The notes beneath the pieces were generated by a model. It was not told the DNA's origin, did not search any database, and was given only the letters and a program-made list of their open reading frames with translations. Both the position numbers and the translations under genes were made by a program. Source: Escherichia coli (GTDB taxonomy: Bacteria > Pseudomonadota > Gammaproteobacteria > Enterobacterales > Enterobacteriaceae). Taken from it: 64,000 bases of DNA. This document shows, in pieces, positions 28,057-28,921 of the stretch. How positions within the stretch are numbered: position 1 is the first letter of the stretch; the number at the start of each line of letters is the position of its first letter. The DNA is taken from assembly GCF_013315695.1 (NCBI RefSeq), contig NZ_CP054353.1; one strand, written 5' to 3'.

Positions 28057-28170
28057 AGCCCGGCGTGATTTATTGCTGGTATTGCCAACTGCTGACTAAA
28101 GCGTACAAGTGATTTGGTGATGCTGCCAACTTACTGATTTAGTGTATGATGGTGTTTTTGAGGTGCTCCA

Positions 28171-28446
28171 GTGGCTTCTGTTTCTATCAGCTGTCCCTCC
28201 TGTTCAGCTACTGACGGGGTGGTGCGTAACGGCAAAAGCACCGCCGGACATCAGCGCTATCTCTGCTCTCACTGCCGTAAAACATGGCAACTGCAGTTCA
28301 CTTACACCGCTTCTCAACCCGGTACGCACCAGAAAATCATTGATATGGCCATGAATGGCGTTGGATGCCGGGCAACAGCCCGCATTATGGGCGTTGGCCT
28401 CAACACGATTTTACGTCACTTAAAAAACTCAGGCCGCAGTCGGTAA
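28171..28446 (+). CDS. insA: IS1 InsA
   Basis: 91-aa [26 protein letters not shown]... Confidence 0.93.
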
Positions 28447-28868
28447 CCTCGCGCATACAGCCGGGCAGTGACGTCATCGTCTGCGCGGAAATGGACGAAC
28501 AGTGGGGCTATGTCGGGGCTAAATCGCGCCAGCGCTGGCTGTTTTACGCGTATGACAGGCTCCGGAAGACGGTTGTTGCGCACGTATTCGGTGAACGCAC
28601 TATGGCGACGCTGGGGCGTCTTATGAGCCTGCTGTCACCCTTTGACGTGGTGATATGGATGACGGATGGCTGGCCGCTGTATGAATCCCGCCTGAAGGGA
28701 AAGCTGCACGTAATCAGCAAGCGATATACGCAGCGAATTGAGCGGCATAACCTGAATCTGAGGCAGCACCTGGCACGGCTGGGACGGAAGTCGCTGTCGT
28801 TCTCAAAATCGGTGGAGCTGCATGACAAAGTCATCGGGCATTATCTGAACATAAAACACTATCAATAA
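28365..28868 (+). CDS. insB: IS1 InsB (expressed as InsAB' by -1 frameshift)
   Basis: 167-aa ORF overlapping insA. Confidence 0.9.
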
Positions 28869-28921
28869 GTTGGAGTCATTACCAATAGCGTCGTGGGTCG
28901 CTATTCACCTCTACTGATCGT

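Follow-up and report, generated by a model that had tools for sequence, protein, structure and literature searches.

An IS1 element without a target duplication beside lysC marks the almost certain loss of a phage-tail gene cluster from a clinical Escherichia coli lineage

Results

Gene content of the lysC locus

The 64,000-nucleotide stretch of E. coli DNA analysed here (from contig NZ_CP054353.1, hereafter the window) carries an accessory island beside lysC, the intact gene for lysine-sensitive aspartokinase 3. The island consists of a slipin (SPFH/Band 7) pseudogene, a RlaP-type nucleotidyltransferase gene in two fragments separated by IS4, a short gene stump and an IS1 element (copy 1), while a second IS1 (copy 2) lies in dinF (Table 1). 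The internal stop codon of the slipin gene is also present in strains MS 21-1 and AF14; the IS4 element is flanked by a 12-bp target duplication (CAGCCGCGGCTG) and is absent from MS 21-1. PADLOC returned no matches for the slipin, the nucleotidyltransferase, the zeta toxin found in another form of the island, or the 151-aa protein described below. The slipin pseudogene and the IS4-split nucleotidyltransferase gene indicate that insertion sequences are taking apart the accessory island at lysC, every gene of which is now inactive or gone.

Table 1. Coordinates of features at the lysC locus in the window and at the corresponding locus of comparison genomes.
Feature	Sequence	Position	Strand	Remarks
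Slipin (SPFH/Band 7) pseudogene	window	24694-25821	+	internal stop
RlaP-type nucleotidyltransferase, N-terminal fragment	window	~25827-25943		
IS4	window	25946-27371	-	1,426 bp; splits nucleotidyltransferase gene
RlaP-type nucleotidyltransferase, C-terminal fragment	window	27373-28056	+	
Left deletion stump	window	28070-28115	-	last 14 codons and stop, NHLYALVSSWQYQQ*; C-terminus identical to WP_000047948.1
IS1 copy 1 (IS1A-type), intact	window	28116-28883	+	768 bp; inverted-repeat matches, Pfam, RefSeq
insA of IS1 copy 1	window	28171-28446		
insB' frame of IS1 copy 1	window	28365-28868		
Right flank, IS1 to lysC stop	window	28884-28921		38 bp
lysC, intact, stop codon included	window	28922-30271	-	lysine-sensitive aspartokinase 3; convergent with IS1
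IS1 copy 2, in dinF	window	53696-54463	-	identical to copy 1 (768/768)
Ancestral hairpin	extracted MS 21-1 stretch	28174-28203		
Tail cluster	extracted MS 21-1 stretch	28200-45807		
ISEc53 (ISL3 family) unit	extracted MS 21-1 stretch	28897-30654		1.9 kb; ClbS/DfsB-like passenger
Tail cluster	extracted Res13-Lact-ER01-35 stretch	2952-18711		
IS1 of GTEN_24	extracted GTEN_24 stretch	3001-3768		

Copy 1 shows the size and ends of the IS1 family (about 768 bp, with terminal inverted repeats of about 23 bp), as its left (28116-28138) and right (28861-28883, + strand) inverted repeats are both exact matches, where none would be expected by chance. It also displays the coding arrangement of the family, namely insA followed by insB' in the -1 frame; Pfam recognised the InsA zinc-ribbon and HTH_Tnp_IS1 domains (PF03811 and PF12759) in the former and DDE_Tnp_IS1 (PF03400) in the latter. 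The same element in strain MSB1_4I is annotated by RefSeq as an IS1A family transposase with a programmed frameshift.

Absence of a target duplication at copy 1

A sequence-only reading of positions 28107-28892, that is, copy 1 with 9 bp on each side, had described an element with intact ends, differing flanking 9-mers and a distance of 38 bp to the lysC stop codon, and all of these points were borne out: the flanks read AAGTGATTT (28107-28115) and AATAGCGTC (28884-28892), and the gap to lysC has the length given. Scanning within 20 nt of both ends identified no alternative duplication of 8-14 bp that shifted IS1 boundaries might have rescued, the longest word common to the two 20-nt flanks being the 5-nt AGCGT, which is not adjacent to the ends; the claim that copy 1 has no duplication therefore stands. 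Conversely, copy 2 carries the perfect 9-bp duplication ascribed to it, GGTTTTGCC, at 53687-53695 and 54464-54472, while MS 21-1 possesses an intact dinF with one copy of this 9-mer. Perfect 9-bp duplications were also present at all five other IS1 insertions examined at the yjbD-lysC locus (strains TB354, FDAARGOS_536, W137, PK13 and MB15), so that each of the six simple-insertion controls has a duplication within the 8-14 bp range, whereas copy 1 has none. A target duplication defines a simple insertion event and not the IS1 element itself. The dinF gene, which encodes a MATE efflux protein and belongs to the LexA regulon, has been broken by IS1 in the window lineage.

The two IS1 copies of the window have opposite orientations; an inversion between them was considered as the source of the unequal flanks and rejected, given that copy 2 has its own duplication and that the intervening 24.8 kb are collinear with MS 21-1.

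Comparison with related genomes

The structure of the window recurs in two other complete genomes. MSB1_4I (NZ_LR898874.1), from a human rectal swab in Australia, is 99.987% identical to the window over all 64 kb and 100% identical over a 3.2-kb query, and AF3 (NZ_OZ547117.1), a UK bloodstream isolate, displays the same layout of slipin pseudogene, IS4-split nucleotidyltransferase gene, IS1 and lysC. As the IS1 junctions are thus present in two independent complete assemblies, an assembly artefact is very unlikely. A literature search on strain MSB1_4I returned nothing relevant.

The island type most common at this locus (yjbD, slipin, nucleotidyltransferase, zeta toxin, lysC; represented by WCHEC020031) was evaluated as the ancestor of the IS1 flanks and rejected. 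Its homology to the window ends 15 bp past the nucleotidyltransferase stop codon and restarts exactly at the lysC stop codon, which indicates that the 44 bp on the left and the 38 bp on the right of IS1 derive from a different island variant. Loss of an approximately 1-kb zeta-toxin gene at IS1 was rejected likewise, since the flanks do not come from that island type. A search with the left flank identified three genomes that are 100% identical to it without running into IS1, namely MS 21-1, AF14 and NZ_OZ546911, which represent the nearest relatives lacking copy 1. In both MS 21-1 and AF14, which were inspected, the nucleotidyltransferase gene is followed by phage tail genes. The comparison with relatives that the sequence-only reading had called for thus places a phage-tail cluster between the nucleotidyltransferase gene and lysC. 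The extracted MS 21-1 stretch covers 57.9 kb of the window at 99.91-99.96% identity in the shared DNA, and the two differ in structure at three points only: the IS4 in the nucleotidyltransferase gene, copy 1 with its deletion, and the IS1 in dinF.

A 17.6-kb segment is replaced by IS1

Mapping of the junctions on MS 21-1 placed window position 28115 at 4925807 and window position 28884 at 4908198, such that the 768-bp IS1 stands in for exactly 17,608 bp (MS 21-1 4908199-4925806). The element has been kept, its flanks are non-contiguous in MS 21-1, and they border one continuous missing segment, as in an adjacent deletion. At both junctions (on the left, 28115|28116) the IS1 inverted repeats are complete to their last nucleotide, as is the case for joints made by transposase. 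All that the window retains of the tail cluster is the 14 in-frame C-terminal codons of its last gene; this stump, encoded on the - strand by the 45 bp that adjoin IS1 on the left, belongs in the relatives to the 151-aa terminal gene of the cluster (WP_000047948.1).

The sequence-only reading had taken the missing duplication as a sign of an IS1-linked deletion or recombination, by which the accessory island might have lost a part next to the SPFH and nucleotidyltransferase genes. The junctions uphold both proposals, as 17,608 bp separate the two flanks in MS 21-1 and this segment contains the complete tail cluster. We conclude that a segment of about 17.6 kb has almost certainly been deleted in the window lineage, and that copy 1 lacks a duplication because of this deletion. 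The contrary reading, in which no deletion took place and the duplication decayed by mutation, the relatives gained the cluster later or the assembly is at fault, is extremely improbable: in relatives with 99.96% identity the flanks are separated by 17.6 kb, approximately 196 genomes carry the cluster at the same locus, two independent assemblies, both complete, share the structure, and the truncated gene stump left in the window implies that the cluster was lost here rather than gained by the relatives. No support for this reading was found. Copy 1 is a standard and apparently active IS1 element at the scar of a recent deletion.

In MS 21-1, the deleted DNA starts at the left border with GGAGAATAGCGCCAGCTT (2195-2212 in the reverse complement of the extracted stretch), which resembles the left end of IS1, GGTGATGCTGCCAACTT (among the top 0.65% of positions, which is marginal after four tests), and also the sequence across the right border, GGTGAATAGCGTC. 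The right deletion border itself gave no IS1-end-like match. The likeness of GGAGAATAGCGCCAGCTT to the IS1 end may mean that IS1 prefers targets similar to its own ends, and it was not counted as evidence for a mechanism.

The lost gene cluster

In MS 21-1, the interval from lysC towards the nucleotidyltransferase gene encodes a Mor-family activator, ISEc53 with a ClbS-like passenger, a holin, a lytic transglycosylase and a membrane protein, followed by a Gp37-family protein, the tail sheath, tube, assembly and tape measure proteins, and lastly by the tail, X, D, V, W, J and I proteins, a fragmented tail-fibre gene, a DUF4376 protein and the 151-aa protein. The cluster measures 17.6 kb in this strain, or about 15.7 kb minus the 1.9-kb ISEc53, and was already damaged there, with the fibre gene in pieces and ISEc53 between mor and the holin gene. 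The unit formed by ISEc53 and the ClbS/DfsB-like gene was also observed in fimB of other strains and on plasmids. Res13-Lact-ER01-35 has an intact cluster, its 20 genes running without interruption from mor to the 151-aa gene, again between the nucleotidyltransferase gene and lysC, and the RefSeq annotation of this cluster lists no head, packaging, replication, integrase or transposase genes. PHROG matches identified a late activator, a holin, an endolysin, the sheath, and tail and fibre-assembly proteins, and the sheath shares 71% identity with gp39 of Burkholderia phage BcepMu.

Of 5,426 complete E. coli genomes, 196 (approximately 3.6%) carry the sheath and tube genes and 196 carry the terminal gene, which indicates that the cluster is usually kept whole. 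Judged by its predicted products, the lost cluster is a head-less, BcepMu-like contractile tail with an architecture like that of R-type tailocins. The relatives possess the gene set of such particles, i.e. a contractile tail, a lysis cassette and a regulator, with no genes for head, packaging, replication or integration.

Further IS1 events at the locus

The tail cluster has been affected by IS1 in other strains as well. GTEN_24 (NZ_CP116480.1) carries a 768-bp IS1 without a duplication, between the unrelated flanks GCGAATGCA and TCATCGGCC, in place of 11,436 bp of the cluster; the missing part, sized against a reference 100% and 99.9% identical in the flanks, begins inside the fibre gene and extends to the membrane-protein gene. 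In 02B17CRGN002 (NZ_CM148328.1), the annotation places an IS1 inside the tail-tube region, where it splits the tube gene. Taken with the window, these two cases indicate that IS1 has struck the cluster repeatedly and independently. The interval from yjbD to lysC is, moreover, a variable hotspot, being empty in K-12-like strains and occupied in others by slipin, nucleotidyltransferase and zeta toxin genes, or by slipin and nucleotidyltransferase genes with the tail cluster. Many independent IS1 insertions were also noted in this interval in other E. coli, at about 35-150 bp from the lysC stop codon.

Discussion

Route of the deletion

IS1 is classically prone to adjacent deletions; such IS1-promoted events have reportedly been known since the 1970s from the work of Reif and Saedler on the gal region. 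Insertion of IS1 followed by an IS1-mediated adjacent deletion is the route that we favour as probable for the window, both because a single insertion suffices, in place of a pair situated exactly at the two borders of the cluster, and because of this general tendency of the element. On this scheme, the immediate ancestor carried the tail cluster between the nucleotidyltransferase gene and lysC, and an IS1 would have entered at one of its borders with a normal 9-bp duplication; the sequence does not tell which border came first. The transposase would then have linked the opposite end of IS1 to a new target on that molecule, at a distance of 17.6 kb, in an intramolecular transposition of the classical adjacent-deletion type, whereby the intervening DNA would be expelled and IS1 left with one old and one new flank. 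The predicted joint of the intermediate is CATGGTGAATAGCGTC|GGTGATGCTGCC for an IS1 at the lysC border with its duplication, and GTCATTACC|AAGTGATTTGGAGAATAGCG for one at the left border, likewise with its duplication. That the process had two steps, and in which order they came, is what we infer from the end product.

A cluster flanked by two direct IS1 copies could instead have been lost through RecA-dependent recombination between them, leaving one hybrid IS1; if each copy had come with a separate 9-bp duplication, AAGTGATTT for the left border and AATAGCGTC for the right, exactly the observed flanks would result, and the end sequence would be identical to the product of an adjacent deletion. 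IS1 is abundant in the strain, at least 40 places in the genome matching it, the two copies in the window are identical, and in other strains both the locus and the cluster have been struck many times; since two IS1 and one IS4 lie within 29 kb of each other in the window, a second local IS1 is not far-fetched. Recombination of this kind is also a recognised cause of missing duplications (PMC11708052). It nevertheless requires IS1 to have inserted twice, independently and in one orientation, at sites within 17.6 kb that bracket the cluster exactly; neither insertion occurs singly among the 5,426 complete genomes, and the route is less parsimonious than one insertion with one transposase event. 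We thus view it as possible but rather unlikely. Each window junction was found only in the two genomes that have both, none of the 5,426 complete E. coli genomes containing a one-junction intermediate, and with no intermediate sampled the sequence alone does not separate recombination between IS1 copies from an adjacent deletion.

The lack of intermediates would also agree with a single step in which IS1, with no prior resident copy, was captured into the break during the 17.6-kb deletion. Such an 'IS at the centre of a deletion' has been proposed for IS5 and IS481 events without duplications, although the authors could not exclude two rapid steps (PMC11708052). There is no demonstration of it for IS1, and ordinary transposase chemistry explains why both joints lie exactly at the IS1 termini, so that one-step capture seems improbable here.

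The favoured route, insertion followed by adjacent deletion, agrees with what has been described elsewhere. Missing duplications have been put down to adjacent deletion or to recombination between IS copies, and in the long-term evolution experiment all 14 of the 14 re-examined IS-associated deletions came after a pre-existing IS insertion (PMC11708052). The window resembles those deletions in that an IS without a duplication lies at the scar, which fits insertion then adjacent deletion; however, they involve IS150 in strain B, with intermediates observed in time series, whereas the present case concerns IS1 in a natural clinical lineage whose intermediate was not sampled (PMC11708052).

As in the classical IS1 adjacent deletions (gal, Tn9), the deletion in the window starts exactly at an IS1 end and the element is kept, and copy 1 shares with classical IS1 (IS1A/IS1 family) its 768 bp, its 23-bp inverted repeats, its insA/insB' frameshift layout and the 9-bp duplications at simple insertions. 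The window differs from those deletions only in the site and the DNA lost, and in nothing mechanistic. The occurrence of IS1 at a deletion scar is already known as textbook behaviour of the element and is mechanistically nothing new; its value for genome interpretation is that an IS1 without a duplication provides a reliable flag for missing DNA.

Nature of the lost cluster

The consequence of the deletion is that the clinical E. coli lineage of the window has lost a whole cassette of phage-tail, lysis and regulator genes. R-type tailocins derived from Mu-like phages are represented by R-syringacin of Pseudomonas syringae (PMC4542187) and BceTMilo of Burkholderia (PMC5411513). The cluster is like these in having a regulator, a lysis cassette and a complete contractile tail without head, replication or integration genes, and in its fixed chromosomal locus across strains; it differs in that the E. 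coli cluster is known here from its genes alone and is absent from the window. Neither a description of the cluster at lysC nor one of its particles killing related strains was found in the searchable literature. Identity with the published 'ST131 tailocin' was not accepted, as that name refers to prophage regions of about 23 kb, one of them with head genes, for which no lysC location is given. The lead that deserves attention is the head-less tail cluster conserved at lysC in other E. coli.

It may be speculated that the cluster encodes an undescribed, functional R-type tailocin, and that IS1 has removed or disrupted it repeatedly because a weapon that depends on lysis is costly and is selected against in some clinical lineages, and not through neutral decay. 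This proposal, which we consider doubtful, takes into account the events in the window lineage and in GTEN_24 and the simple insertion in the tube gene of 02B17CRGN002.

Effect of the deletion on the lysC border

The deletion leaves lysC, its lysine riboswitch and its promoter untouched. In the ancestral arrangement, a hairpin lies between the convergent lysC and mor genes, with an 11-bp stem (GGTGAATAGCG/CGCTATTCACC), a predicted folding energy of -23.9 kcal/mol and a z-score of -5.55; it is not followed by a T-run and hence is not a canonical terminator. The right deletion border falls inside this hairpin, and the IS1 joint has removed its outer stem. The remnant at 28884-28905 of the window is predicted to form a 7-bp stem (-13.0 kcal/mol, z -0.95), and it is possible that the truncated hairpin would affect the 3' end of the lysC transcript.
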